Shown: positions 6,112 to 19,315 of the stretch, piece by piece
Layout: each line of letters begins with the position of its first letter
Numbering within the stretch: position 1 is the first letter of the stretch
DNA from: Candidatus Hadarchaeales archaeon
Lineage (GTDB): Archaea > Hadarchaeota > Hadarchaeia > Hadarchaeales > JAWBSP01
Direction of reading: 5' to 3'
DNA: 19,346 nt
NCBI GenBank assembly: GCA_038842485.1
Contig: JAWBSP010000019.1
Location: 1-19,346 of the forward strand
The notes under the pieces: generated by a model
What the model saw: only the letters and a program-made list of their open reading frames with translations
What the model was told of the DNA's origin: nothing
Databases searched by the model: none
Program-made: the position numbers and the translations under genes

Positions 6112-7233
6112 ATGAATTTTGATGCCGTGGTGGTGGGAGGGGGTCCGTCCGGATGCTTTTTCGCAGCGAATCTGGCGAGGGACGGCTGGAGGGTTGGGAT
6201 TTTCGAGGAGCACAGGGAGGTGGGGCTACCCTGGTGCTGTGCGGGGGTGGTGGGCGTGGGAGGGATGCGCGAGCTTGGTTTGGAACTCCGGGGACTGGTT
6301 CTTGAGGAGCTGAGGGGGGCCATCCTGTATTCCCCCTCTGGTAAACGGGTCGAGCTCACTCGTGGGAGGGCCGAGGCGTGGGTCATTGATAGGCCAGCCT
6401 TTGACCAGAATGTGGCGGATCTCGCCCTGAAAGCCGGTGCTGAACTTCATCTTGGTAAGAGGTGCAGGCTGAGGGAGGGGCTCGAGGTCGGCGGGAGGTC
6501 TGTGGGGGGAAAGGTTATAGTGGGGGCGGATGGGCCGCTCTCCCCAGTTGCGAGGGCCTCGGGTCTCTTTGGGAGGCGGAGATTTCTCAGGTTCGCGCAG
6601 GTGGAGGCACGGGTGGAGACGGACGAGGGGTTTGCGGAACTCTATCTGGGCAGGGAGGTGGCGCCAGGGTTTTTCGGGTGGGTGGTTCCAGCTGGGGAGA
6701 GGGCAAGGGTTGGGGTGGGAACCTGGGAAAACCCGCTCCCCTTCCTGCGCTCCCTCCTCAGGAGGCTGGGGGGGAGGGTTAGGGGAAGGATCCCAAGGCC
6801 CTCCCTAGATGTGCTTCCCGCCAGCCGGTCCGAGAGGATGGTCAGGGGGAACATCCTTCTGGTTGGCGACGCGGCTGGACAGGTCAAGCCGCTCACGAAG
6901 GGGGGTCTCTACATGGGGCTCTCCTGTTCCAAGCTCGCTGCTCAGGTCGCTTCCAAACATCTGGAGCGCGGGGTGCCCCTAACAGAATACGAAAGGGAGG
7001 TGGAGCAGAGGTTCGGGGAGGAGTTCAGGCTGGGGGGGCTTGCCTTTTCCCTTTTCTCCAAGATGGGAAACCGCGGGCTGGAGTTTTCGCTGGCCATATT
7101 GGGCCGCTGGCTGAGGGAAGGGGTTTTGGCGGAGGCGGATTTTGACCACCATTCCAGGCTGCTGAAACGTCTCCCGCTCCTTCCCCTCCGCCGTCCGCGT
7201 TTTGGGAGGGAAACGGATGATTTCTCCCCGTAG
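6112..7233 (+). CDS. Geranylgeranyl reductase family FAD-dependent oxidoreductase (digeranylgeranylglycerophospholipid reductase-like)
   Basis: ATG at 6112 (MNFDAVVVGGGPSG) preferred over the track's 6076. Motifs GxGxxG, CAG, IDRPAFDQ, VGADG..S.VAR, APGFFGWVVP (variant of PxxYxWxFP) and LLVGDAAGQVKPLTKGG. Confidence 0.9.
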   Translation: MNFDAVVVGGGPSGCFFAANLARDGWRVGIFEEHREVGLPWCCAGVVGVGGMRELGLELRGLVLEELRGAILYSPSGKRVELTRGRAEAWVIDRPAFDQNVADLALKAGAELHLGKRCRLREGLEVGGRSVGGKVIVGADGPLSPVARASGLFGRRRFLRFAQVEARVETDEGFAELYLGREVAPGFFGWVVPAGERARVGVGTWENPLPFLRSLLRRLGGRVRGRIPRPSLDVLPASRSERMVRGNILLVGDAAGQVKPLTKGGLYMGLSCSKLAAQVASKHLERGVPLTEYEREVEQRFGEEFRLGGLAFSLFSKMGNRGLEFSLAILGRWLREGVLAEADFDHHSRLLKRLPLLPLRRPRFGRETDDFSP

Positions 7234-7894
7234 GTTTCTTCCCCTGCTGTTTTTCCTGGCGGTGGTCCTGTTTTTCGACTTCGCGCCCAGGCTGTTTCCC
7301 AGACCCGAAACTCCAAACTCTCTCGACGGTGAGGAGGTGCTGTTTCTCCAGCGCCATCTCTCCAACAGGCCCCTCGACTACTTCTTTGTGGCTTTTTACA
7401 GCGTGGGATACTCGGTTTCGATTTGCGGGGCCGCCATGCTTCTTGTCTTCACGGGAAGGTCAAGAGAATCCTGGCTGTATCTTTTGGTTTTCTTCATCTC
7501 CCAAGTTCTTGCACAGCTCACTTGGTTACTCTTTCCCGTCGCCCCTCCCAGGCTGGCGGTGGTCGGGGTCAGAGGTGTGAGGGAGGAAATCTTCGGGCTG
7601 TCCGAGCGGTTTAACCCCTTTCCTTGGGGGGCTTTCCCATCCATGCATGTTGGCAACGGGCTCACCGCTCTTCTCTTCGCGCGCAGGTGCGGGAGGAGGG
7701 CAGAACTCGTCTGGGCCTTTCTCCTGTTTGTTTCGGCCTTCTCCGCGCTGTATCTCGGGGAGCACTACCTGATAGATCTCATTGCGGGGTGCGCCTACTC
7801 CTTGGGTCCCTACACTCTGGTGACTCGCTCAAAAATTGGTGCACGCCTCAGCTCCTACCTTTCCGGCGTTCCATCCTCTCCCGCAGTTTCTTGA
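7217..7894 (+). CDS. PAP2-superfamily membrane phosphoesterase, Aur1/IPC-synthase-like (PAP2_3)
   Basis: Multiple TM helices. Motifs WLLFPVAPP, GAFPSMH and LYLGEHYLIDLIAG match the Aur1-type catalytic His/His-Asp motifs. Start taken at ATG 7217, overlapping the reductase stop. Confidence 0.88.
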   Translation: MISPRRFLPLLFFLAVVLFFDFAPRLFPRPETPNSLDGEEVLFLQRHLSNRPLDYFFVAFYSVGYSVSICGAAMLLVFTGRSRESWLYLLVFFISQVLAQLTWLLFPVAPPRLAVVGVRGVREEIFGLSERFNPFPWGAFPSMHVGNGLTALLFARRCGRRAELVWAFLLFVSAFSALYLGEHYLIDLIAGCAYSLGPYTLVTRSKIGARLSSYLSGVPSSPAVS

Positions 7895-10800
7895 GTTCTT
7901 CTACCTCCCTCTTCTTCAGAGGTATTTCCCTCCTTCTTTCTCTTATGAAGCGCTCAAGGGTTTCTACTGCGACCAGCTCTGGTTTGGTTAGCTTCTCCAA
8001 AACTGGTATCACTCTGGGCGGCGGTGGGGTAGGGGTGATCAGCTCCTCCGCTAGGCGGGCCAAATCCGTTCTCTCCCTCCTGTGCAGTTTCCTGCCGTAT
8101 GATCTGAGCCTGCGATCTATCTCCTCGGGGGGAGCTTCTATGATTCTCATCAGTTTTCTCTGGGTTCTTCTCGCCCAGAACTCCGAGGCTGCAGGGTACA
8201 TCATGACGCAGCTGATGGTCCCGATGATTCCAAGCCAGACCCAGAATATCACCCACGTTGGGAAGGTGGGAGCTCTTTTGGCTGTGACTGCGAAGCAGCT
8301 GTACCCGCTGGGCTCGAACTCGAGGTAGAGGGATCTCCCATCCTCGCCGGCGAGGCTGTAGGAGAGCTCGGCCCAGTCCCCCCTGTACCCCCAGACCTTC
8401 AGGGTATCCCTGTTCATCTGCTGCAGCCAGCTCTTCTCCACTTCGATTCTCATCCTCAAGGGCACGCCGTTCTCGAGAATCAGATCCAGATAGACGTAGA
8501 GTTCGGCGGGCAACTTGGGGAGCCAGGGTGGGAGATATCTGGATTCGGCAACGGAAACCCTTGCGGAGGGGGGGAGGGATCTGTACCAGAACCTGTTCAG
8601 GGAGGGGGAGAGATTGGTGAGCTCCACCACCTGCGAGGTGAGGGCCTCAACGGTCCGTGTCACTCTCTCCTCCAGGAATCTGGGGGCAAAGATGGAGCCA
8701 CCCCAGCTTTCCAACCCGAACCAGCCGAACTTCGGGAGGTAGGCGCTTTGGATAATTGTTTTCCAGCGGATGGGGGAGGAGACGGACCCGCCCATGCTCT
8801 CTAGGAAAGTCCAGATGTGGGGGGCAGATATTCTCCCGGAGCAACTGTCAAGCTGAAGGTATCCAATGCTCGGTCCTTCCAAGGTCAGTGACCTGTTGTC
8901 AATTTTCCTCCAGCAAGCAGTTGTCTGGATTCTTCCCGCGGCAGACTCGAGGATCCTCCAGCGGGCTGGCAGCGACCTAGCGGTCAGGGCTTCTAGGGTT
9001 TTCCAGCTACCGAGCGTTCCCCTTCCGCCCGCGCGTAAGCTCTCGCAGAGGCTCCACTCCGAGGGCGGAACTCCCACCGACCACGAGAGGGATTCGAGCG
9101 GTTTGAAGGAGGCTGGGGCTCTCACCTTGGGTTTCCAGCTCTCCAAGGTACGCCACTGCCTGTTCACCACGCTACCCGTCCAGCTCTCAAGCGTCACCCA
9201 GTAGTGCACTCCAGTACAAGTGGCGGTGAGGACATCAACCTCTGCCCAACTTGCCTCGCTGTACAGTTGCCAAAGCCAGCTCTCCACGGCATCCCAAGCC
9301 ACCCAGGCACGCGAGGTAGCCGACCAACCCTCGAGTTCCCGCCAGAAGGCCTCCGGATAGGAGCGGAGCGATGAACTCCAAACCTCGATACCCCTCCACC
9401 CCGCCGCCCCTTTCACGGAGCACGTCCATCCCTCCACCACGGTCCAGTAGTGAACTCCGATGCCAGAGGCGGAGAGTTCATCCACCCAGAACCAACCGGC
9501 CACCAAGTTCTCCAACTCATAAGCCCAGGAATCGACAAAGTGCCAAGTGCTGGGAGAACTGAGAGTTAATAGCCAAGTTTCGATGGATACCCATCCCGCT
9601 CTCCCCCTGACCGTGACGGTGAAGGAGTCCAGCGGAAGCCAATCGGAGGAGTACAAGATGAAGGGATCCGACCATGGTCCCACATTTCCCACACTGTCTA
9701 TGGCTTTAACCCTCCAGTAGTATGTTCCCCAAGCCAGCCCCGGTGCGACGTGGGTGTTCTCGCTGACCGTAACATCAACCTGTGGCAGGTAGAAGTTGGG
9801 TTCATCCGAAATCTGGACGGTGTACTGAGCCACTCCCGAGCCCACATCCGAGGCCGTGTAGCAGAGGGTGAAGGGCTGCCCAGCCTGAATGTGTGCCTCA
9901 TTTTCTGGAGCCAGCAGGGTCGGTTTGGAGGGGGGGTCAATGTCCACCTTAAATCTCCAGACCGTCGACCAGGGGCCCCAGTTTCCGGCGTTGTCCCTGG
10001 CTTTCACCCTCCAGTAATAGGTGCTCACGGGGAGGGGCGGTGAAACGATCCAGTTGTCCGAGTAAATCTCCGCCACCCTGGTTAGGTTTATGAAATCGGG
10101 GAAGTCGGAAACCTCGACCCGGTAGAGGACGGGCGGTGAGTTTTCTGGGACGGGCAGCCAATCAAGATTGGGTTTAGCCGACGCCCACCCGTTATTCTCT
10201 GGGTGGAGGAGGGAGGGAGCGGATGGCAGGACCGTGTCGATCTTAAACCTCCAGGCATTTTCTTGGAAGTTCCCGACATTGCCCGCATTGTCGGCCGCGC
10301 AGACCTTCCAGTAGTAGGTCACATTCTCCTGCAGGCCGGAGACCTCATGTGCATTGTCGGAGACCCATGTCTCGATTACGATGTTCTCGGGCTCGAAGTA
10401 GGGTGAGTTTGAAATCCTGAGGCAGTAGATTAGGGGCAGGGAGTTCTCGGGGGGAACCGTCCAGCGCAGCAGTGGTGTCGGGTCATTCACGTCCTGGCCA
10501 TCTGAGGGTGAGAGCAGTTCTGGGGGTGCAGGTTTTAGGGTGTCGATCCTGAAGGTTCTTACCGACCACCCACTAGGCGTTCCAGTCCGGTAGCATCTGA
10601 CTCTCCACCAGTACAGATTGTCAGGTAAGGGGAAAGTGGTGTAGGAGGTCTGGGTTCCGGGCAGGGTTACAGAGATTTCGAGGGAGGAGAAGCTCTCGTC
10701 GTTGTCCACCTGCAGTTCAAAGTAGTCGACCGGTTGCAGATTTTCCCAGCTCAGGGTCGGGGTGTTGTCGCTGGTGTTGAGGCCGTTCTCGGGTGAGAGG

Positions 10801-13800
10801 TTGGCTGGAGGATAGAGCGGGGCTTGGACCTGGACGGACCTGAGTTCCAAGAGCCGCCACCACGCCGGGAAGAGGAGGGTTGAGGAGAGGGAATCCGTCT
10901 GGAGCCAGCAGACTCTGCTCGGGCAAGAAGCCGACCAGCTTTCGGCGATCGCCCACGCCGGGATTGTTCCGGCTCCCCCGGACCGTTCCTCCAGCCGATA
11001 CCAAACACATATCGTGGGCGCGAGTCCATCAGACCAAACTTCGGTTAGGTTCCAAGAGGCCGGGAATCGAACTTGCGCAAGCCGACTCTCAACCAGGAAC
11101 CAAGAAACCGGCATCCTGATTCCACAGGTCCATTCCCCAAGCAAGAACCATGTGGCGGGAGTGGGTGTTGTGGAGCTGAAGGATTCCAACTGTTTCCACA
11201 CAACGGGGGCAGGTAACCAAATTATCCAGCTCTCAAGTGCAATCCAGCGGGCGCCGGCTGAAATCTCACCGACCAGGTTCTCGAGCGCGAGCCACTCCGC
11301 CATCGTGGCGACACCGCACTGCCAGCTCTCTGCACGTGTCCAGCATGGCAGGTTCGTGAGACCCCCAGTCCAGCCTTGAAGGAGGAACCAGCCCGCAGGG
11401 GATGACGCACTCCCCGCCCACTCTTCCAGTCCCCTCCACAGGCAGATGCAGCCGAGGGCTGCATCCAAGGAGTCCGCCTTCCTCCAAAGGGCGGGGGAGG
11501 TCACAAGGATGGTGGAGGCTTCCAGCATGGCCCAACCGACCGTTGTCCGTGCCCGGCCTGTCCAGGATTCCGCCTCCCTCCACCTGCAGGCATCCAGAAG
11601 CCAGCTGTCCGACCACTGTCCGAGATTTCCCGCCACATCCACCGACCTCACCCTCCACCGGTAGGATCCAGCCTCGATCTGGACCGTCAGCGAATTTTCG
11701 ACAACCTCTTGATTCTCATAGGCGAGCAACTCCCCTCTCCAGAGCTGGAACCAGTAGTGCGATACTCCCGATCCCTCATCGGTTGCGCTCTGCCACTTGA
11801 AGGTTATGGATCCCTCAGGAAGGAAGGAGAGGTTCTCGGGGGAAACAAGCTGCACTTTGGAGGGGGGCGTGTTGTCGCACCTGAATCTCCATATCTGGGA
11901 CCACCCGCTCGAGTTGCCGGCGTTGTCGCAGGCTCTGACTTTCCACCAGTAGGTCCCTTCCTCGAGGGTGACATCCAGCCGGTTCTCTAGGATCCAGACG
12001 TTCTCAACGATCAGAGTGAAGGACGGGTCGTAAGCTATGAGGACGTTGTACCGAACGGGGAGGGAATTTTCGGGGACGTCCGACCATCTTAAAGTCAGGG
12101 AGGATGTCACCCAAGAATCGTTTTCAGGCGAACTCAACTGAGGTGCAGCTGGCGGGAGAGTGTCGACTCTGAACTTCCGGACGGCGGAGTAAAGACCATT
12201 GTTCCCAGCATTGTCGCGTGCGAGGACCCTCCAGTGGTAGACATTGTCTGGAAGGAAGGGAGTCTCGATCTGGTTTTCCGAAACCCAACTGGCCCACACG
12301 ATGTTCTCTTCCTCGAAGTACTTTGAAACCGAGATTTCCACCCGATAAGTTAGCGGGAAGGAGTTTTCGGGTGGAGTGGTCCAGCGGAGGAGGGGGGTTG
12401 GATCGTTCAGGTTTTCACCGTCTCCGGGGTAGAGAGGTGAAGGCTCTGCCGGGGCGATCGTGTCAACCCTGAAGCGCCAGACCGCCGACCAGCCTGAGAA
12501 AGCCCCCGTTCTCCACTGGCGGACCCTCCAGTTGTACAGGTTGTCGCTGAGTCCGCTCGGCTGGTACTGATTGGAAGTGACGGTTAATGAAACCTCGGGC
12601 GAGCTGAAGTCGGGGTCGTTGTCGATTTGAAGATCGAAGTAGTCAGCCGGTAGGAGATTCTCCCATTGCAGGATGAGCGGGGTCGTGTTCGGGTTTATAT
12701 TCAGACCGTCGGGTGGGGAGGCGAGTGTTGGGGTGGGAACCGGGGAGGCAACCAAATCGTGGAAAATGTCCAGTTCCCTCCACTTGCAGGGGGCATGAAC
12801 GAGAGTGGAGAGAGCCTCCACATGTAACCAGGCGGGGGGGGTGCCAATACCGCTGCTAAAAGTTTCGAGCCCCTCCCATGTTCCAATCGTTCCAGTCCCA
12901 CCGCCCCACGAATCGAGCCCATGCCATGAAGTCGGCCATGTGATTTGCGCTGATGCGGAATCAACAGCATGCCAGTTTGCTTGACTCCTCAGATCTCCCG
13001 TCCAAAAATCTGCCTCCCTCCAGCTCGGGACGGTTCTGACAAGTGCCAGCCAGGCGTCAAGCGAGACCCAGAGGGTTACCGCCTCACCGGTGCATGCCAG
13101 CTGATCAAGCGAGAACCAACTCGAAGGAAAGTTGAGAGACCCAACAACTGACTCAATCTGGCTCCATTGGGCTGGGCACGAAACCGTTGTTTCCCAAGTT
13201 TCGAGCATACGGTGGAAGGAAATGGTTTGAGCGCGCCCACCGAAGCTTTCAATCTCAGTCCACTCGGGCAGGGTTAGAGAGGCCGCACCCCAGCTCTCGA
13301 TTGGTCTCCAGGAGGGAACGGTAAGGGAGGTGAAGCCCCACGAGTCAAGGGCAATCCATCCCGGGACGTTCCTGATGGATTCTGTCCAATTCTCAACTAC
13401 CCTCCAGCCGTATGTAACTTGGATGGAGACCGTCCATTCCTCAACCCTTACCCAGGTGCAGACGGTGAAACAATTTTCCTCCGACCAAGAACCGAGGTTC
13501 CCAGCTGCATCCCTAGCGCGGACCCTCCAGAGGTAAATTCCCGTCTCCAGATGCAGAAGCAGTTGGTTCTCTGGCACGAAAGTGTTTTCGTACACGAGCA
13601 CCCCACCGGAATAGATTTGGACCCAATAACTCAGCTCACCCGAACCGTCGGCTGCCGAGAAGATGAGGAGCACATCCATCGGAACAAAGGAAGAGTTCTC
13701 GGGTGAGAGCAGAGTTGGCTTACTGGGTGGGATGTTGTCCGTTCTGAAGTATTGGATCGCTGAATTTTCACCCACGTTTCCTGCATCGTCCATGGCGCAG

Positions 13801-16568
13801 ACCCTCCAGTAGAAGATCTTTCCCTCCAGCCCCAGCCCCTCTTCGAGCACTGGGGAGGTCCAGGAGTTCTCCTGAATCCAGGGGGAGGTGTAAACCGTGT
13901 AGAGGGATTCGTTAAAGCTGGAGCTCTCGCAGATCCAGACTTTATACCTGACTGGTGTGGAATTCTCTGCAACGGCCTCCCAAGTCAGGGTTGGGGTCGG
14001 GGTGGTCCACTGGCCCGAAACCGGGGAAATTGGGGTCGGGACCGGTGGTTTTACCGTGTCCACCCGGAAACTTCCCGCCGACCAAGGTCCTATCCATCCC
14101 GCATTGTCCCTGACCCTAACTCTCCAGTAATACACTCCATCCGTAAGCTCACCCGCAAGCTGGTACTGGTTCTCGGAAAGCCAGCCGACGCTCAGAAGGA
14201 AGGGTTCGTTGAAGGCTGGTTCGTTGTCGAGCTGCAGCCAGTAGGTTAGTGGAAGAGAGTTCTCGGGAACGGAGCTCCAGCGGAACGGGGGAGTGTTGTC
14301 CTTTATGCTTGACCCAGGTGCGGGGAAAATCAGGAGGGGCGCACCCGGTGGAGTCGTGTCGACGCGGAAGTACCCCACGGACCAGCTGGAGGGGACGCCT
14401 GTTCGGAACTGTCTCACCCTCCACCAGTACAGATTGTCTTGAAGCTCTGGCGTTGTGTAGGAGGTCTGGGTTCCGGGGAGGATTTCTGACACACACGGCG
14501 ACGAGAAATCTTGATCGTTGTCGACCTGAAGTTCGAATTCGTCCGCGGGTAGCAGGTTCTCCCAGCTAAGTGTTGGGGTGTTGTCCGCACTGTTGAAACC
14601 GTTCTCGGGTGAGAGGTTTGCCGGGGGAGGAACGGGGGAGGAAATGCTCCCGGTTCGAATTTCTGCCGATAGCCATCCCGCTGGGCTTGTGGTATAAGTA
14701 TCGCAAGTTTCAAGCGACCACCAAAGGGCGCTCGGTGGGACGAGCGAGGCGGTTTGAAGGTCAGTGAATTGCCAGCGGGGGGAGGTCTGAAAGATGCCAG
14801 ACCATCCCTCCACCGGATACCATCGGGAGGGAGAGCCGATGTTTGAGGCGAAAGTCTCGATCCGTATCCAGAGCGGGAGAGTTGAAACCTTGGTTTCGAT
14901 AATTTCCGTCCTTCTCCAAAAGGTCGGGGAGTTTAGTCTACTCTCGAGCGAATCCAAGGTGAACCAGAAGTAAGAGGTTCTAGGCAGGCCTAAAAACGCT
15001 TCTAACGGCCACCATCCGGCTGAAGCGGAACATGAGCCTAACCAGTGTTCCAGCGGCGACCAGTAGATTAGGCACCTGCTTGAACTGGCCCAGTGCTCTA
15101 GCGATAACCAACAGGCTAGGGAACTGCAAGTTCCTGAAAGAGCCTCCACAAAACTCCAGCCGAATCCTCCGATTACCGACCCGATGAAATCGTCTAGGTG
15201 GAGCCAGTTGCGGGGCGTGGTGATTTGTCCATTCAATTCCTCAAGCTGTTTCCAATCGGCGGCTGTGGTTAGCCCGCTCGTCCAGCCCTCCAGAGTGACC
15301 CACCCCCTCACGAAGAAGTATTGGGTCGACCAGGGACCGGTGTTCTGGGCACCGTCAACCGCTCTAACCCTCCACCAGTACCCACCAAGCTCTAATGTCA
15401 GGGTGAGCGAGTTGTCGGTCAGGGTCTCGGAGTGAATGTATGGCTCGAGGAATTCGTTCTCGTTGTCCAAGACGAATTCGTAAACCACTCCGCTGAGGTC
15501 GACGATCCCGGACCACGAGAAGCCCACGGTTGCGGTTTCCAGCTCGGCCCCGTTTTCTGGGAGCAGGTTTTCTGGCGTGGCGGGGGGCGTGTCGTCGTAA
15601 CCGCAGCAGGCGTCAGGCTCGGCCGGTGCATTTTCGTAGTTCCCCTTATCGTCCCATGCTCTCGAGTAGAACTGGTAGAAGCCGTTCGCGGGTGGTGCAA
15701 AGACCCTTGAGTAGGGAGGGGTTGAGTCGTTGTCGTAGAGGATCCAGTTGCCCCAATTTATGTTATCCGAGGAGTAGCGGTACCAGAACTCGACGTTCTC
15801 CACAAGACCATCGTTGTCCGTGGCGGTGGCGGTGAGGGTGAAGGGTGCGTTCTGCCAGTAGGGGGAAATGGGGCCGATGGAGGAGGATGGGAAGACCTTC
15901 AGGTTGAAGCGGTAGACCGCCGAGGGGTTCTCGTTTCCGGCCCCATCGATGGCGATAACCCTCCAGTAATAGGGAGAGAAGTTCTCCACAAGTTTGTTCT
16001 CAGCTTGGTGGGAGTTTTCGGTCAGGAGCTTCGAGTAGTAGGGGGAGGAAAAGTCCGGGTCGTTGTCTATCTCCAAAAGGTAGGTGATTCCGGAGGGGTC
16101 GGTTACGGTGGTCCAGGTGAACAGGGGCTGGTCAACTAGGAGATTTTCCCCATTTTCCGGTTGGAGTAAATCGGGGGCGGCAGGGGCGGTGATGTCCACC
16201 CTGAAGCGCCAAGCGCCCGACCAACCTGATGTGTCGCCGGTTGATGAATTCCTCGCTCTTACCTTCCAGTAATAGATTACCATTTCAGCCAGTTCCACGG
16301 TTGGGGTGTACTGATTTTCGAGGGGGAAATCGTTTATCTCGGGGGAGGTGAAATCGGAATCGTTGTCAACCAAGATCTGGTAGGAGTCCGCCCCCTCCAC
16401 GCTCGTCCATCTAAAGAGGGGAGTATTGTCCGCAACCCAGGAATTGTCTGGGGGGCTCAGAGGCGTGGGAGTAGGTAGAAGTGCAAGGGCGGGAGGAACA
16501 TGGACTAACATCAGCATAACGACTAATGCTATGGCTACCCCCTGCCTGAAAATGTTGATGCGAGACAC
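7848..16568 (-). CDS. Giant (2906 aa) cell-surface protein: signal peptide, 16 FN3/Ig-like domains in four blocks, four blocks of 16-aa Trp repeats, PGF-pre-PGF-like domain, TM helix, ~115-aa cytoplasmic tail
   Basis: Uninterrupted 8.7-kb ORF with N-terminal signal (AIALVVMLMLVHVPPALA). Recurring P..L.SP.N/DG....TP...W....Y....DND.DF.SP....YYWRVRA.D.AGN.G.WS domains. EVEKSWL...WAEL...GEDG...EPSGYSCFAVT resembles PGF-pre-PGF. TM TWVIFWVWLGIIGTISCVMMY at 8196-8258. Confidence 0.95.
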   Translation of the reverse strand: MSRINIFRQGVAIALVVMLMLVHVPPALALLPTPTPLSPPDNSWVADNTPLFRWTSVEGADSYQILVDNDSDFTSPEINDFPLENQYTPTVELAEMVIYYWKVRARNSSTGDTSGWSGAWRFRVDITAPAAPDLLQPENGENLLVDQPLFTWTTVTDPSGITYLLEIDNDPDFSSPYYSKLLTENSHQAENKLVENFSPYYWRVIAIDGAGNENPSAVYRFNLKVFPSSSIGPISPYWQNAPFTLTATATDNDGLVENVEFWYRYSSDNINWGNWILYDNDSTPPYSRVFAPPANGFYQFYSRAWDDKGNYENAPAEPDACCGYDDTPPATPENLLPENGAELETATVGFSWSGIVDLSGVVYEFVLDNENEFLEPYIHSETLTDNSLTLTLELGGYWWRVRAVDGAQNTGPWSTQYFFVRGWVTLEGWTSGLTTAADWKQLEELNGQITTPRNWLHLDDFIGSVIGGFGWSFVEALSGTCSSLACWLSLEHWASSSRCLIYWSPLEHWLGSCSASAGWWPLEAFLGLPRTSYFWFTLDSLESRLNSPTFWRRTEIIETKVSTLPLWIRIETFASNIGSPSRWYPVEGWSGIFQTSPRWQFTDLQTASLVPPSALWWSLETCDTYTTSPAGWLSAEIRTGSISSPVPPPANLSPENGFNSADNTPTLSWENLLPADEFELQVDNDQDFSSPCVSEILPGTQTSYTTPELQDNLYWWRVRQFRTGVPSSWSVGYFRVDTTPPGAPLLIFPAPGSSIKDNTPPFRWSSVPENSLPLTYWLQLDNEPAFNEPFLLSVGWLSENQYQLAGELTDGVYYWRVRVRDNAGWIGPWSAGSFRVDTVKPPVPTPISPVSGQWTTPTPTLTWEAVAENSTPVRYKVWICESSSFNESLYTVYTSPWIQENSWTSPVLEEGLGLEGKIFYWRVCAMDDAGNVGENSAIQYFRTDNIPPSKPTLLSPENSSFVPMDVLLIFSAADGSGELSYWVQIYSGGVLVYENTFVPENQLLLHLETGIYLWRVRARDAAGNLGSWSEENCFTVCTWVRVEEWTVSIQVTYGWRVVENWTESIRNVPGWIALDSWGFTSLTVPSWRPIESWGAASLTLPEWTEIESFGGRAQTISFHRMLETWETTVSCPAQWSQIESVVGSLNFPSSWFSLDQLACTGEAVTLWVSLDAWLALVRTVPSWREADFWTGDLRSQANWHAVDSASAQITWPTSWHGLDSWGGGTGTIGTWEGLETFSSGIGTPPAWLHVEALSTLVHAPCKWRELDIFHDLVASPVPTPTLASPPDGLNINPNTTPLILQWENLLPADYFDLQIDNDPDFSSPEVSLTVTSNQYQPSGLSDNLYNWRVRQWRTGAFSGWSAVWRFRVDTIAPAEPSPLYPGDGENLNDPTPLLRWTTPPENSFPLTYRVEISVSKYFEEENIVWASWVSENQIETPFLPDNVYHWRVLARDNAGNNGLYSAVRKFRVDTLPPAAPQLSSPENDSWVTSSLTLRWSDVPENSLPVRYNVLIAYDPSFTLIVENVWILENRLDVTLEEGTYWWKVRACDNAGNSSGWSQIWRFRCDNTPPSKVQLVSPENLSFLPEGSITFKWQSATDEGSGVSHYWFQLWRGELLAYENQEVVENSLTVQIEAGSYRWRVRSVDVAGNLGQWSDSWLLDACRWREAESWTGRARTTVGWAMLEASTILVTSPALWRKADSLDAALGCICLWRGLEEWAGSASSPAGWFLLQGWTGGLTNLPCWTRAESWQCGVATMAEWLALENLVGEISAGARWIALESWIIWLPAPVVWKQLESFSSTTPTPATWFLLGEWTCGIRMPVSWFLVESRLAQVRFPASWNLTEVWSDGLAPTICVWYRLEERSGGAGTIPAWAIAESWSASCPSRVCWLQTDSLSSTLLFPAWWRLLELRSVQVQAPLYPPANLSPENGLNTSDNTPTLSWENLQPVDYFELQVDNDESFSSLEISVTLPGTQTSYTTFPLPDNLYWWRVRCYRTGTPSGWSVRTFRIDTLKPAPPELLSPSDGQDVNDPTPLLRWTVPPENSLPLIYCLRISNSPYFEPENIVIETWVSDNAHEVSGLQENVTYYWKVCAADNAGNVGNFQENAWRFKIDTVLPSAPSLLHPENNGWASAKPNLDWLPVPENSPPVLYRVEVSDFPDFINLTRVAEIYSDNWIVSPPLPVSTYYWRVKARDNAGNWGPWSTVWRFKVDIDPPSKPTLLAPENEAHIQAGQPFTLCYTASDVGSGVAQYTVQISDEPNFYLPQVDVTVSENTHVAPGLAWGTYYWRVKAIDSVGNVGPWSDPFILYSSDWLPLDSFTVTVRGRAGWVSIETWLLTLSSPSTWHFVDSWAYELENLVAGWFWVDELSASGIGVHYWTVVEGWTCSVKGAAGWRGIEVWSSSLRSYPEAFWRELEGWSATSRAWVAWDAVESWLWQLYSEASWAEVDVLTATCTGVHYWVTLESWTGSVVNRQWRTLESWKPKVRAPASFKPLESLSWSVGVPPSEWSLCESLRAGGRGTLGSWKTLEALTARSLPARWRILESAAGRIQTTACWRKIDNRSLTLEGPSIGYLQLDSCSGRISAPHIWTFLESMGGSVSSPIRWKTIIQSAYLPKFGWFGLESWGGSIFAPRFLEERVTRTVEALTSQVVELTNLSPSLNRFWYRSLPPSARVSVAESRYLPPWLPKLPAELYVYLDLILENGVPLRMRIEVEKSWLQQMNRDTLKVWGYRGDWAELSYSLAGEDGRSLYLEFEPSGYSCFAVTAKRAPTFPTWVIFWVWLGIIGTISCVMMYPAASEFWARRTQRKLMRIIEAPPEEIDRRLRSYGRKLHRRERTDLARLAEELITPTPPPPRVIPVLEKLTKPELVAVETLERFIRERRREIPLKKREVEELKKLRERMERRKGRS
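8682..9641 (-). repeat. Trp-repeat block 4 (~20 units of ~16 aa)
   Basis: WLPLDSFTVTVRGRAG / WVSIETWLLTLSSPST / ... / WFGLESWGGSIFAP; unit length 14-18 aa. Confidence 0.9.
10818..11582 (-). repeat. Trp-repeat block 3 (16 units of 16 aa)
   Basis: WREAESWTGRARTTVG / WAMLEASTILVTSPAL / ... / WRLLELRSVQVQAP. Confidence 0.92.
12741..13454 (-). repeat. Trp-repeat block 2 (15 units of 16 aa)
   Basis: WVRVEEWTVSIQVTYG / WRVVENWTESIRNVPG / ... / WRELDIFHDLVASP. Confidence 0.92.
14634..15302 (-). repeat. Trp-repeat block 1 (14 units of 16 aa)
   Basis: WVTLEGWTSGLTTAAD / WKQLEELNGQITTPRN / ... / WLSAEIRTGSISSP. Confidence 0.92.
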
Positions 16569-16616
16569 CGACTAACTATTGGGGTTGCCTTTTGTTCGAA
16601 CTTTGGAATGGGGTAA

Positions 16617-16646
16617 TGTTTCGAGCCTTTTCGAAACAAATAAATA
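16617..16646 (-). promoter_or_regulatory. Putative operator inverted repeat abutting a TATA-like element upstream of the giant gene
   Basis: Perfect inverted repeat TGTTTCGA-N6-TCGAAACA at 16617-16638. Minus-strand TATTTATTT at 16646-16638 lies immediately upstream. Confidence 0.5.
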
Positions 16647-16691
16647 GCTCTGGCAGCAGAAAACTAATTTTCCTTGACGGATTTAGGTCGA

Positions 16692-17663
16692 CTACTCCTC
16701 TCGTAGCTTAGCCAGAAAATCCTCTAGAATGTCCTCGCGCCTTCCAGCCGGTTTTCCCACCGCTTTTTTCTTGGGCTTCTCCACCCTTTCCTTCTTGGGT
16801 TTCTCTACCGGTCTCTTTTCCACTCTCTCCCCGATTTTTTTCTCGACATCTGAAATTCCCGCGTCGCACAGGTAGAAGAAAGTCGATCGTCCAGTTGGCA
16901 AATCCTTAGCTTTCACTAGGCGGGCCTCCCGAAGGGGCTCCCCCTCCTTTGGGATGGAGAGTCTGATTATTAGCCTAGAAAAGGAGAGCATCCCCTTTCC
17001 ACCAATTAAATCGATCCCCGATTTAGGCACCACCTGCTCGGCCTCCGCCCGGCTCAGCGAATGCTCTTTCATCAAACTTCTAATCTTTGCCTCCCGCGCC
17101 GTTTGGGTGATCGGGCTCGAGGGCCAGGTGGTCACAAAGGCTGGGCAGTTGTACTCCACCGCGAGCTTTCTGAGCTTCCCTACCTGAAGGTCGAGCTTTC
17201 CTCCCATTTCGAGAATCGCCGGGACCCTCTTCGGCTCTCGGAGCATCTCCCTCCTGTAAATGGCGGTCAGGGAGTCGGCAACGAGCAGGAGTGGTCTCTC
17301 CCCCTTTTCCATTCGCTCGGGAAGCCTTTTGGTGATGTACTCGTGCTGTTCCCCGAAATCGCTCACCTCCTTGAAAACAAGGTGCCGTTTGATCAGCTCT
17401 GGGTCCAATCCGTGCTGCTGCCAGACCTCGGATGCCCTTTCAATGTCCCAACCCCCGTCCCCGTCAACGACGTAAAAATTCGCACCCTCAGGAATCCCGC
17501 CCTTCTGCAACAGGTGTTTCGCTATCCTTGCGATGGTGACGTAGCCGCTGAGGGTGGTTTTCCCGCTCGTGGTGTCACCGTATAGCAAGGTGAGCGCCGC
17601 TGGCTGGATTCCCCCCGTTAGTTCATCTAGAGATTCGATGCCCCAAGAGATCGGGATCTTCAT
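16692..17663 (-). CDS. RecA/RadA-superfamily ATPase, RadB-like paralog (no N-terminal HhH domain), divergent
   Basis: 323 aa. GIESLDELTGG, Walker A GDTTSGKT, Walker B LLLVADSLTAIYR, LRKLAVEYNCPAFVT, IGG, and C-terminal REARLVK...LP.G...F.L...GISD. Confidence 0.88.
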   Translation of the reverse strand: MKIPISWGIESLDELTGGIQPAALTLLYGDTTSGKTTLSGYVTIARIAKHLLQKGGIPEGANFYVVDGDGGWDIERASEVWQQHGLDPELIKRHLVFKEVSDFGEQHEYITKRLPERMEKGERPLLLVADSLTAIYRREMLREPKRVPAILEMGGKLDLQVGKLRKLAVEYNCPAFVTTWPSSPITQTAREAKIRSLMKEHSLSRAEAEQVVPKSGIDLIGGKGMLSFSRLIIRLSIPKEGEPLREARLVKAKDLPTGRSTFFYLCDAGISDVEKKIGERVEKRPVEKPKKERVEKPKKKAVGKPAGRREDILEDFLAKLREE

Positions 17664-17666
17664 TCA

Positions 17667-17708
17667 ACCTCCTGCCTTAATTCGTGTCGAGAATTTAAAA
17701 GCCTCTTT
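17667..17708 (-). promoter_or_regulatory. BRE/TATA promoter and Shine-Dalgarno for the RadB-like gene
   Basis: Minus strand reads AAAGAGG-C-TTTTAAAT (17708-17693), then AGGAGGT (17673-17667) 3 nt before the ATG. Confidence 0.6.
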
Positions 17709-17777
17709 AACCGTTTTGTTTGGTAGGGGTTTCCCGGGCCGGCTTGAGAACCCCGAACAGAAAAGTCTTACGGAGTG

Positions 17778-17785
17778 TTTATAAT
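17778..17785 (+). promoter_or_regulatory. Putative TATA box for rightward transcription
   Basis: TTTATAAT within an AT-rich patch in the divergent intergenic region. Confidence 0.45.
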
Positions 17786-17850
17786 AAATTTGAAGGAAGG
17801 CATGCCGTTCGCGACAGCAAGCAAGTCAATTGTGACATCTGGCTACACAT

Positions 17851-17997
17851 TTGCCCCTCACCTATGGGGAGGCGCGGCGGTCTCGGCGTGCGCTTAAGGT
17901 GGTGGCATTGGTGGTGTTCGTCGTTTTCTTTCTCCTCTTTCTCTCGTTCCTCATCCGCATCCTCGCCAGCTCATTTTTCGTCGATCTGGGTGGTTAA
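17851..17997 (+). CDS. Putative small single-pass membrane protein (48 aa)
   Basis: TTG...TAA ORF not in the track: MPLTYGEARRSRRALKVVALVVFVVFFLLFLSFLIRILASSFFVDLGG. Basic patch followed by a 19-residue hydrophobic helix. Confidence 0.5.
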   Translation: MPLTYGEARRSRRALKVVALVVFVVFFLLFLSFLIRILASSFFVDLGG

Positions 17998-18076
17998 TCC
18001 CAAAATTGAGTCCACGCTGTTGACGGATGCTTTTACACAGAAGTAATTGTTTCCCCCGCGTATTTTTCTGGAGTGC

Positions 18077-19237
18077 ATGTCCGACCACTCACTGATCTTC
18101 GCGGTGCTGGTGGCGCCTATGGTAGTGCTGACCCTCACTGCACTTGCAAGCGGGGAGGTGGCGGTGATGGCGGAGCCGGTGTGGAGTTACCAGACGGGCG
18201 GAGTCGTCACGAGTGTGGCGATTTCCGCGGATGGAAGTAGGGCGGTTGCGGGCAGCGAGGATAACAGGGTTTACTTCTTCTCGACTTCCGGGCTGCTCTG
18301 GAGCAAGGACACGGGGAAGGCCCTCTTTTCGGTAGGCATCTCCTCCTCCGGCGAGCATATAGTTGCTGGTGGGTGGGATGGAAAGGTATACCTTTTCTCA
18401 AGTTCCGGGGATCTCCTGTGGACCAACCAGATTGGTGGCGCCGCCCTAGTTTCCATCTCCTTGGATGGGGGGCACATCGTAGCCAGCGACTCCGAGAATG
18501 TTTACTTCTTCTCCGGCTCGGGGGCCCTGCGGTGGAATTCCCGGATAGGGAACGTTACTTTTTCTTCGATCTCGCCGGACGGAAGGTACGCGGCCGTTGC
18601 CGGTGGGGACGGTAAGCTGTACTTCCTCTCCAGTTCTGGAAATCTTCTCTGGAGCTCTCAAACCGGTGTCTCTAGATGGATGTCTTTCTCTCCCGACAGC
18701 ACTCATCTGGCAGTCTCGAGCGAGAACAGGGTGTACTTGTTCTCCCGTGGTGGGAAGCTCCTCTGGGTGCAGGAACTCCGCGGTTCGGTCTCCTGTGTTG
18801 CCGTCTCCTCGGGAGGCGAGCGCGTTGCGGCTGCCACCCGAGAGCCTAGGATATGCCTGTTCTCTCGCTCGGGCAACCTCCTCTGGAGTTATTACACGGA
18901 TGGATACCTCAATCTGGTCTCCTTACCCTCCGCGGGGCACTGTGTGGCCGCCAGCGGTGTGGATGGCAAAATTTACCTTCTCTCGGATGCTGGAACCCTC
19001 ATCTGGGGGTATCTGTCAGAATGGCAGGTGGGACCTATCTCCATTTCCAAGGATGGGGGGTACGTCGTGGCTGGAAGCAAGGGTGGTACCGTTTATTTTT
19101 TCCGCGGGGTCCAAGAGAGAACAACGGAAGAAGTTTCCACACTCTACCCGATAGTCCTTCCAGCACTAGCAGTTGCCATGATTTCTCTACTGCTGTTGAG
19201 TTACCGACGGAGACGAACCCCAGCCAGAGCGAGATAG
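18077..19237 (+). CDS. Secreted, C-terminally anchored WD40/PQQ-like 8-bladed beta-propeller protein
   Basis: ATG at 18077 with a signal peptide (LIFAVLVAPMVVLTLTALA). Eight ~39-aa repeats LLW......V.IS.DG..VVAG..D..VYLFS.SG. C-terminal TM helix followed by RRRR. Confidence 0.9.
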   Translation: MSDHSLIFAVLVAPMVVLTLTALASGEVAVMAEPVWSYQTGGVVTSVAISADGSRAVAGSEDNRVYFFSTSGLLWSKDTGKALFSVGISSSGEHIVAGGWDGKVYLFSSSGDLLWTNQIGGAALVSISLDGGHIVASDSENVYFFSGSGALRWNSRIGNVTFSSISPDGRYAAVAGGDGKLYFLSSSGNLLWSSQTGVSRWMSFSPDSTHLAVSSENRVYLFSRGGKLLWVQELRGSVSCVAVSSGGERVAAATREPRICLFSRSGNLLWSYYTDGYLNLVSLPSAGHCVAASGVDGKIYLLSDAGTLIWGYLSEWQVGPISISKDGGYVVAGSKGGTVYFFRGVQERTTEEVSTLYPIVLPALAVAMISLLLLSYRRRRTPARAR

Positions 19238-19315
19238 ATAAGACGGTAGGCATGAAGATCAGGGGGAACGGCACACAGAGGAAACGATTAACCCACCAGC
19301 CCCGTGATGTTATGG

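Follow-up and report, generated by a model that had tools for sequence, protein, structure and literature searches.

Choline-binding (CW_binding_1) and clostridial CROP repeats are extracellular units of about 20 amino acids (aa) that combine aromatic residues with glycine, the aromatic residues being conserved. RTX beta-rolls are built from the nonapeptide motif GGxGxDxUx, with 18 residues per coil. The Ca2+-dependent beta-helical antifreeze domain of a Marinomonas adhesin (PDB 3p4g) has coils of about 19 residues with a Ca2+-binding Gly/Asp-rich turn, and sits in what we take to be a giant repeat-rich surface adhesin. The central domain of the ice-nucleation protein (INP) is described as a cell-surface array of 50–80 units of 16 residues (consensus AGYGSTQTAGEESSLT), each of which forms one beta-solenoid coil in AlphaFold models (PMC9418140). 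The Blastomyces adhesin BAD-1 has 41 Trp-rich short tandem repeats (PMC3708853). We describe here a 16-residue tryptophan repeat (the W repeat) encoded in a 19,346-nt stretch of DNA from Candidatus Hadarchaeales archaeon (contig JAWBSP010000019.1 of assembly GCA_038842485.1; the whole stretch analysed is called the window). The 65 units of this repeat lie in a 2906-aa protein, and the explanation that we favour, with a probability of roughly one half, is that they represent a new repeat family whose arrays serve as rigid rod segments, variable in length, within surface proteins of an adhesin-like kind. The phylum has been little studied; the literature describes it as uncultured until recently, with some members syntrophic with methanogens. 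Literature searches found nothing on the cell surface of this phylum, and adhesins, surface proteins and S-layers were all unmentioned in a Hadarchaeota paper that was queried.

A preliminary description of the window, made from the letters alone, had placed about 65 copies of the repeat between positions 8682 and 15302, in blocks of 14, 15, 16 and about 20. Counting gave 65 units in blocks of 14, 15, 16 and 20, spanning 8676–15302, so that the proposed span was true within 6 nt. The near-strict period of 16 aa claimed there was borne out as well: 54 of the 65 units are exactly 16 aa long, the remainder having 17 (six units), 15 (three units), 18 or 14 residues (one unit each). Three positions had been called almost invariant, and they are: position 1 is W in 62 of 65 units, position 4 is L, I, V, M or A in 60, and position 5 is D or E in 62. 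The residues said to be frequent were W, F or L at position 7 (50/65; W alone in 29), G at position 9 (21/65) and P at position 14 (27/65). Pairs of Trp residues separated by 16 positions numbered 59, as against 11.4 ± 3.1 (maximum 22) in 2000 shuffles of the protein; for the individual blocks the values were 13, 16, 16 and 12, against shuffle means of 1.5–2.8. The 16-residue period is far above chance expectation. Trp accounts for 9.6% of the block residues, compared with 1.36% in the open frames of at least 300 aa of the same genome, and S, T, A, G and P are abundant in the arrays. No higher-order periodicity was found: identity between units is about 0.25 for all lags, and likewise from block to block. 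Charge pairing between position 2 of one unit and position 6 of the next (18 observed, 9.6 expected; Z 3.8) is a weak signal, too little for inferring contacts.

One check proposed in the preliminary description was to search a profile of the units against a large protein set. A profile of 64 positions, built from 15 four-unit pieces of the window, matched 168 of 1.84 billion cluster representatives at E ≤ 1e-3, of which 107 passed a limit of 1e-10 and 56 a limit of 1e-30. Among the 150 matches listed, 126 contained at least three consecutive units conforming to the strict motif, and 49 contained at least ten; at least one of the others, P0086, was a false positive with a 101-residue period. 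Spacings of 16 residues were found 1351 times and spacings of 17 residues 296 times. The 1351 units of exactly 16 residues gave the family consensus W-q-L-[IVL]-E-[ST]-W-[TS]-G-T-[VI]-x-A-P-A-x, with the following residues at each position:

Positions 1–5: W 96%; q; L; I/V/L 87%; E 83% or D 14%
Positions 6–10: S/T; W 83%; T/S; G 64%; T
Positions 11–16: V/I/L 75%; x; A; P 45%; A; x

The window copies are a degenerate form of this consensus. Trp makes up about 12% of the family arrays (9.6–12.5% across arrays), together with conserved beta-branched aliphatic residues, and acidic residues strongly outnumber basic ones in them (on average 16.1 D/E versus 6.3 K/R per 10 units).

Profile matches were present in 26 of 41 relatives' genomes (E ≤ 1e-3), in 33 of 65 genomes from the class, itself a single order (E ≤ 1e-6), and in 33 of the 66 genomes of the phylum (E ≤ 1e-8); the sole phylum genome outside that order had no match. 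The homologues named by their sources appear as ‘hypothetical protein’, ‘PGF-pre-PGF domain-containing protein’ or ‘right-handed parallel beta-helix repeat-containing protein’, and the organisms named for them are Hadesarchaea, Candidatus Hadarchaeales, Hadarchaeaceae and Hadarchaeum, a few being labelled merely as subsurface or marine-sediment metagenome. The W-repeat arrays are a real, constrained family whose range is one small archaeal phylum. Found in half of the genomes searched, and in proteins of up to several thousand residues, the repeat is among the most prominent lineage-specific protein features of this phylum, and its profile enables the annotation of giant proteins now called hypothetical. 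One W-repeat protein (P0055) is labelled Candidatus Zixiibacteriota; its sequence is partial and comes from a contig of 1.8 kb, and the label may reflect a binning error or a transfer. DNA nearly identical to the window was found only in hot-springs metagenome runs (15 runs from six studies, four of them possibly the source). The assembly of the genome itself comprises 0.94 Mb and is 88.9% complete.

The preliminary description had recognised no named family for the repeat, and for the window blocks this was upheld. Searches of Pfam and NCBIfam with the whole protein, and with two blocks alone at E ≤ 10, gave no match to the W blocks, and searching PDB chain sequences with the unit profile returned a single row at chance level (E 0.96). 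In a comparison with a protein atlas the best values, 0.80 for a window block and 0.78 for P0045 (CBM96 clusters), were both below the 0.9 line. CW_binding_1, an aromatic hairpin repeat of about 20 residues, and the RTX beta-roll family HemolysinCabind were not listed in the Pfam scans of the protein or arrays; the W repeat has a period of 16, and its unit has one Gly, at position 9. Nor did these scans match any carbohydrate-binding module (CBM) or cell-wall-binding family. Literature searches found no description of the W repeat, and supplementary annotation tables could still mention such proteins. The W repeat is a new sequence family; its fold class, apparently the beta-solenoid, looks like a known one.

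Two Pfam entries were considered. DUF3499 (PF12005) matched two near-canonical arrays from relatives at 35.6 and 31.8 bits (cut-off 25) and appeared in the precomputed Pfam column for three of 75 homologues. These matches were confined to positions 32–63 of the 119 positions of the profile, repeated in shifted registers, and no match was found on the window blocks (E ≤ 10) or in the whole of the same genome; a control search gave a match only in Corynebacterium glutamicum. The similarity to DUF3499 was read as a partial resemblance that arose by chance and was amplified by repetition. The other entry, PF27237.1, is given in the precomputed column for P0043 and P0162; it is unlikely to model the W repeat, because only these two of the 75 homologues have it.

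The W repeat resembles that of INP in forming long tandem arrays of 16-residue units with an S/T-x-T pattern beside a small residue, and the 16-residue period holds both in the window and across the family. It differs in having Trp twice per unit, where the INP unit has Tyr once, and in being split into blocks between immunoglobulin (Ig)-like modules, whereas INP has one central domain. There is no sequence similarity either: Ice_nucleation was not listed for any of six arrays scanned at E ≤ 10, and no match to the AGYGSTxTAGxxSxLx unit was found. The W-repeat host, moreover, is a hot-spring archaeon, in which ice binding is implausible; an ice-binding role for the S-x-T-x-T face was rejected, as all the runs holding the DNA are hot-spring metagenomes. 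With CW_binding_1 and CROP repeats, known from Gram-positive hosts, the W repeat shares short extracellular tandem units with conserved aromatic residues, but the period is 16 rather than about 20, the proposed structure is a one-coil solenoid rather than a hairpin superhelix, and there is no Pfam match. BAD-1 is likewise a surface protein with many short Trp-rich tandem repeats; these, however, are described as 17-residue disulfide-constrained heparin-binding loops with a thrombospondin-like WxxWxxW motif, while the W repeat has no conserved Cys and has its Trp residues at positions 1 and 7. We would place the W repeat with a known kind, the solenoid-type extracellular tandem repeats; it is of interest for its extreme Trp content, its strict period, its one-phylum range and the disagreement between two predictions on it.

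The units show where variation is tolerated. Deletions in the units of 15, 17 and 18 residues fall mostly in columns 13–16. Among the 71 family proteins that have enough units, 13 show N-x-S/T glycosylation sequons at position 8, position 13 or both in 30% or more of their units, as N-G-S/T at position 8 and N-x-S/T at position 13; they are nearly absent at positions 12 and 14. Both sites are filled in all units of P0081 (19/19) and P0103 (26/26). The sequon-bearing subfamilies (P0081, P0103, P0044, P0066 and P0142) have sequons in almost all units, with units such as W-x-T-x-x-T-W-N-G-T-V-x-N-T-S-x, and the acidic residue at position 5 is lost in sequon-rich members such as P0081 (0/19), P0103 (0/26) and P0142. 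A Ca2+-binding Glu ladder as a general feature of the family is weakened by this loss. The indels in columns 13–16 and the sequons at positions 8 and 13 fit two exposed turns per unit; the simplest reading of the sequences is that turns at positions 8–10 and 13–16 join two short strands whose conserved residues pack. Beta-solenoids have fixed turns that tolerate insertion or modification, and such turns are indicated here by these indels and sequons together with G at position 9 (64%) and P at position 14 (45%).

A three-way alignment of block 4 of the window protein with its orthologues P0003 and P0007 showed position 1 to be identical in 19 of the 20 units, and positions 13 and 15 in 63–65%; at positions 2, 3, 6, 8, 10 and 12 identity was 5–15%. 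Positions 1, 4, 5, 11, 13 and 15 are those kept between the orthologues. When units of the same array were compared in three near-canonical arrays (45 unit pairs each), the proportion of synonymous differences (pS) was 0.59–0.76 and that of nonsynonymous differences (pN) 0.10–0.19. Third-codon identity between the near-identical units of relatives was 41–56%; the unit DNA in these relatives is old. The units are under strong purifying selection, with nearly the whole unit constrained, which argues for a defined structure. A flexible or disordered linker, that is, an extended glycosylated spacer with no fixed fold, would account for the richness in S, T, A, G and P, for the sequons present in every unit of some subfamilies, for the variable length of the arrays and for the failure of one array to fold in prediction (see below). 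We nonetheless hold it to be very improbable: a Trp content of 9.6–12.5% with conserved beta-branched aliphatic residues is, in our judgement, unlike disorder, the period is strict with indels confined to four columns, and pN is far below pS over almost the whole unit.

The same conservation pattern bears on whether the array binds something. Exposed ladders of Trp and acidic residues might bind a repeating polymer (a glycan, an exopolysaccharide (EPS) or the envelope of a partner) along the array, and W1, D/E5 and W7 are indeed the most conserved residues. The pairing of Trp with acidic residues is typical of sugar-binding sites, and in choline-binding and glucan-binding repeats aromatic residues bind the ligand. 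Such a track would also spare the protein from burying two Trp per 16 residues, which is hard; the strong acidity of the arrays, and their co-occurrence with the lectin-like or glycan-active domains Laminin_G_3, F5/8 type C and Beta_helix/NosD, are in keeping with it. Residues outside the motif, however, turn over rapidly (the positions with 5–15% identity noted above), the acid at position 5 is replaced in the sequon-bearing subfamilies, copy number drifts among close relatives, and CBM and cell-wall-binding families gave no match. Overall, a ligand-binding track seems a possible but doubtful explanation.

AlphaFold2 was applied to residues 1039–1230 of the window protein (the first 12 units of block 2), with a 23-row alignment of repeat pieces. 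The best model was all-beta, with strands recurring every 16 residues, a predicted local distance difference test score (pLDDT) of 64.7 and a predicted TM-score (pTM) of 0.44. In an exhaustive VIA-align pass of this model against 48,161 chains, the best rows were beta-solenoids only. The best match was 3p4g_A (Z 14.3, root mean square deviation (rmsd) 2.7 Å, 192 of 192 residues aligned over 240 target residues), followed by a Dot/Icm component (Z 13.9) and by TibA, pertactin, Ag43 and tailspikes (Z 10–12). The model superposed on right-handed beta-helices with an rmsd of 2.7–3.5 Å, whereas left-handed helices, with Z about 13, fitted only at about 10.8 Å; this points to a right-handed model with one unit per coil. 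The narrow right-handed solenoid of 3p4g is the closest structural likeness of the block-2 model, whose pLDDT is 64.7. Its coils have about 19 residues rather than 16, and the profile search of PDB sequences did not return it. That a coil of 16 residues is feasible is shown by the known solenoid model of INP (PMC9418140).

Several observations weigh against the solenoid rod. The five block-2 models varied widely in pLDDT (64.7, 62.6, 45.8, 44.7 and 24.0), VIA-align Z values below about 13 are common for repeats, and Foldseek found no match to the block-2 model in the PDB at E ≤ 1e-3. A near-canonical array of 10 units from a relative, predicted with a 67-row alignment, gave a pLDDT of 29.2 and no secondary structure, an outcome equally compatible with an obligate oligomer, with a cofactor-dependent fold, with disorder and with a failure of the prediction. 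The two alignments each consisted of repeat pieces in arbitrary register rather than true orthologues. The hydrophobicity of the arrays peaks at a period of 3.2 (16/5) and not at 2.0. In our judgement, a narrow core can hardly accommodate two Trp and two aliphatic residues from every 16-residue coil; one or more Trp ladders may therefore lie exposed, and this would speak for a role in binding or as a zipper. Finally, no RNA is listed among the public runs that hold near-identical DNA, and no expression or protein data were found. Given the pLDDT of only 64.7 for block 2 and the failure of the second array, the solenoid is the best available hypothesis for the W repeat and not a result. Modelling one block as a monomer, another check named in the preliminary description, thus yielded a weak solenoid for block 2 and nothing comparable for the relative's array. 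Of the folds listed there under the heading of a new repeat fold, the beta-solenoid is the only one to have gained support, through the block-2 model; its architecture is known, and the novelty lies in the sequence family. The W repeat is a strongly selected sequence on which structure predictions conflict and, being unusually rich in Trp (about 12%) and strictly periodic, offers a thermophile scaffold for structural work and design.

The unfolded outcome for a canonical array, despite the strong selection on it, is what would be expected if the units folded only when assembled, as a trimeric shaft of the beta-spiral kind or as a solenoid zipper between chains or cells. Triple beta-spiral shafts, as in adenovirus and reovirus fibres, are homotrimers with a strand-turn-strand-loop repeat of about 15 residues, and the succession of strand, G-turn, strand and variable P-loop in the W repeat recalls the 15-residue repeat of the adenovirus shaft. 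On the other hand, the W blocks are separated by Ig-like domains in strings, an arrangement that usually makes stalks of a single chain; a paralogue on contig C8 of the same genome contains an isolated single unit; and block 2 of the window did yield a monomeric solenoid model. We regard an obligate oligomer as unlikely. The solenoids of INP, which also have 16-residue coils, are proposed to pair via an exposed Tyr ladder (PMC9418140). In the boldest form of the assembly reading, the unit would be a fold beyond the reach of present predictors working on one chain, and ladders of Trp and Glu might zip several chains, or those of two cells, into a heat-stable fibre, an arrangement to which we give little credence. 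Were it true, it would let small-genome thermophiles hold partner cells or surfaces, and the W repeat would be no further solenoid spacer but the first of a class of surface repeats that depend on assembly.

The gene is on the reverse strand of the window, and its product is laid out as four Ig-like modules with a W-repeat block after each one. The features, in order from the N-terminus of the protein, are:

7848..16568, minus strand: whole gene, an uninterrupted open reading frame (stop codon included) for a 2906-aa putative type-I anchored surface protein
16479..16568, minus strand: N-terminal signal-peptide-like segment, residues 1–30 (approximate boundary); basic start and hydrophobic stretch ending in ALA, assigned by eye
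15303..16478, minus strand: N-terminal Ig-like module, residues 31–422; matches to Ig_J, Big_7 and related Ig-like Pfam families; 61–66% identity to orthologues
14628..15302, minus strand: W-repeat block 1 (14 units), residues 423–647; unit profile match E 1e-21 to 1e-22
13455..14627, minus strand: Ig-like module I1, residues 648–1038; Big_13 at residues 757–838; 46–47% identity to I2 and I3
12735..13454, minus strand: W-repeat block 2 (15 units, every unit 16 aa), residues 1039–1278
11583..12734, minus strand: Ig-like module I2, residues 1279–1662; from Pfam, NCBIfam and module comparison
10815..11582, minus strand: W-repeat block 3 (16 units), residues 1663–1918
9642..10814, minus strand: Ig-like module I3, residues 1919–2309; matches to Ig_Rha78A_N, SusE and fn3; 66% identity to orthologues
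8676..9641, minus strand: W-repeat block 4 (20 units), residues 2310–2631; membrane-proximal, position conserved
8259..8675, minus strand: C-terminal extracellular domain, PGF-pre-PGF-like, residues 2632–2770
8196..8258, minus strand: predicted transmembrane helix, residues 2771–2791; hydrophobic stretch of 21 residues, assigned by eye
7851..8195, minus strand: charged cytoplasmic tail, residues 2792–2906 (115 residues; 33 K/R and 20 D/E)

The regions between the blocks, as distinct from the W repeat itself, contain tandem Ig-like domains above Pfam cut-offs, as in Ig-like stalk adhesins (Ig_Rha78A_N, 95.1 bits, cut-off 27.4; Big_13, 70.4 bits, cut-off 27). The NCBIfam model TIGR04213 (PGF-pre-PGF) scored 25.3 bits at residues 2709–2763, below its cut-off of 28; several homologues carry the source name ‘PGF-pre-PGF domain-containing protein’. 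No PGF-CTERM sorting signal was matched in the 2906-aa protein, which has instead the transmembrane helix and the charged tail of 115 residues. Taken together, the signal-like segment, the Ig modules, the transmembrane helix and the charged tail suggest the product to be a giant type-I anchored surface protein.

Two orthologues, P0003 (2448 aa) and P0007 (2881 aa), can be aligned over the whole length of the window protein. The Ig modules are 61–66% identical to theirs, except for I2 (47–48%), and the C-terminus is 49–55% identical. Block 4 aligns at 41–47% identity and with hardly any gaps; all 20 units correspond, those of odd length among them. Blocks 1–3, in contrast, reach only 27–32% identity and are matched best by blocks other than those at the corresponding position. 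Within the window protein, the inner Ig modules are 46–47% identical among themselves and the W blocks 21–29%. Block sizes also vary: 14, 15, 16 and 20 units in the window protein versus 13, 16, 12 and 20 in a same-genus orthologue. The low identity of blocks 1–3 relative to the Ig modules, together with these varying sizes, was counted as spacer-like behaviour. Across the family, the smallest blocks have a few units and the largest about 66 (median seven), and the protein of one relative has about 139 units in five blocks.

Contigs of four hot-spring runs from other studies cover the gene piecewise at an identity of mostly at least 99%, and no unit-sized (48-nt) indel was found in them. Since block sizes differ between orthologues, copy number therefore changes between species, with no change visible inside this population. 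At window position 9500, in W block 4, a contig from run X6 has an in-frame 3-nt deletion. In contigs of three independent runs the match ends at 10316, in module I3, with an identical foreign continuation, and other contigs end near 12592–12623, in module I2; these breaks may represent a strain variant or assembly confusion between Ig modules that are 46% identical. A single joint from 10320 to 16042 was disregarded, its short side being only 21 letters.

The W repeat is used in a modular way. In the 22 top matches it adjoins Peptidase_S8, Beta_helix/NosD, F5/8 type C, Laminin_G_3, Big_1, PQQ propeller and Ig-like domains, and 79 of 150 family representatives have a hydrophobic segment within their last 150 aa. 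Modular use, variable copy number and fast-changing exposed positions favour a structural rod or spacer in adhesin-like or enzyme-displaying proteins. In the rod explanation, each 16-residue unit would most likely be one coil of a narrow right-handed beta-solenoid, with W1, the aliphatic residue at position 4, W7, the aliphatic residue at position 11 and the small residues at positions 13 and 15 in its core, and with the exposed turns at positions 8–10 (T-G-T) and 13–16 (A-P-A-x). The arrays would be stiff rods of adjustable length, interspersed with Ig-like modules of four domains each, in a giant surface protein that its C-terminal helix anchors in the membrane. The rise of a standard beta-solenoid is 4.8 Å per coil, so that by our arithmetic 65 coils would extend the reach by about 31 nm. 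Provided that the rods are rigid, copy number would set how far Ig-like and enzymatic domains reach from the cell. The analysis establishes the repeat, its family and the range of that family, the purifying selection, the places of length changes and sequons, and the modular use beside many other extracellular domains; the solenoid fold, the rod or spacer role and the adhesin-like function of the whole protein are what we infer. Of the roles that had been proposed in the preliminary description, a stalk fits the evidence best.

Two paralogues were found in the same genome: a 1305-aa open frame on contig C8 (about 15372–19286, plus strand) and a 940-aa open frame on contig C4 (2–2821, plus strand). 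Both have the same Ig-like modules, a 5-unit W block between Ig-like domains, a C-terminal transmembrane helix and a charged tail; the isolated unit of the C8 paralogue lies behind its first Ig-like domain. A search of genome contigs with the whole protein returned only Ig-domain relatives in unrelated metagenome-assembled genomes (MAGs), and nothing on the W repeat. The neighbouring genes in the window are archaeal housekeeping genes, coding for both phenylalanyl-tRNA synthetase (PheRS) subunits, PTH2, an AIR-synthase-like protein and a geranylgeranyl-reductase-like flavoprotein; no tRNA gene lies within the window. An open reading frame of the PAP2 superfamily (7202–7894, plus strand, 230 aa) converges on the gene of the giant protein, sharing 47 nt with the 3′ end of the latter. 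A WD40/PQQ-like beta-propeller protein of 396 aa is encoded at 18047–19237 (plus strand), and in the family member P0024 a WD40/PQQ-like propeller is fused to W repeats. At 16692–17663 (minus strand) a 323-aa protein has only a weak match to Rad51/KaiC-type ATPases (E 6.7e-13), and seems to be a paralogue of RadA, not RadA.

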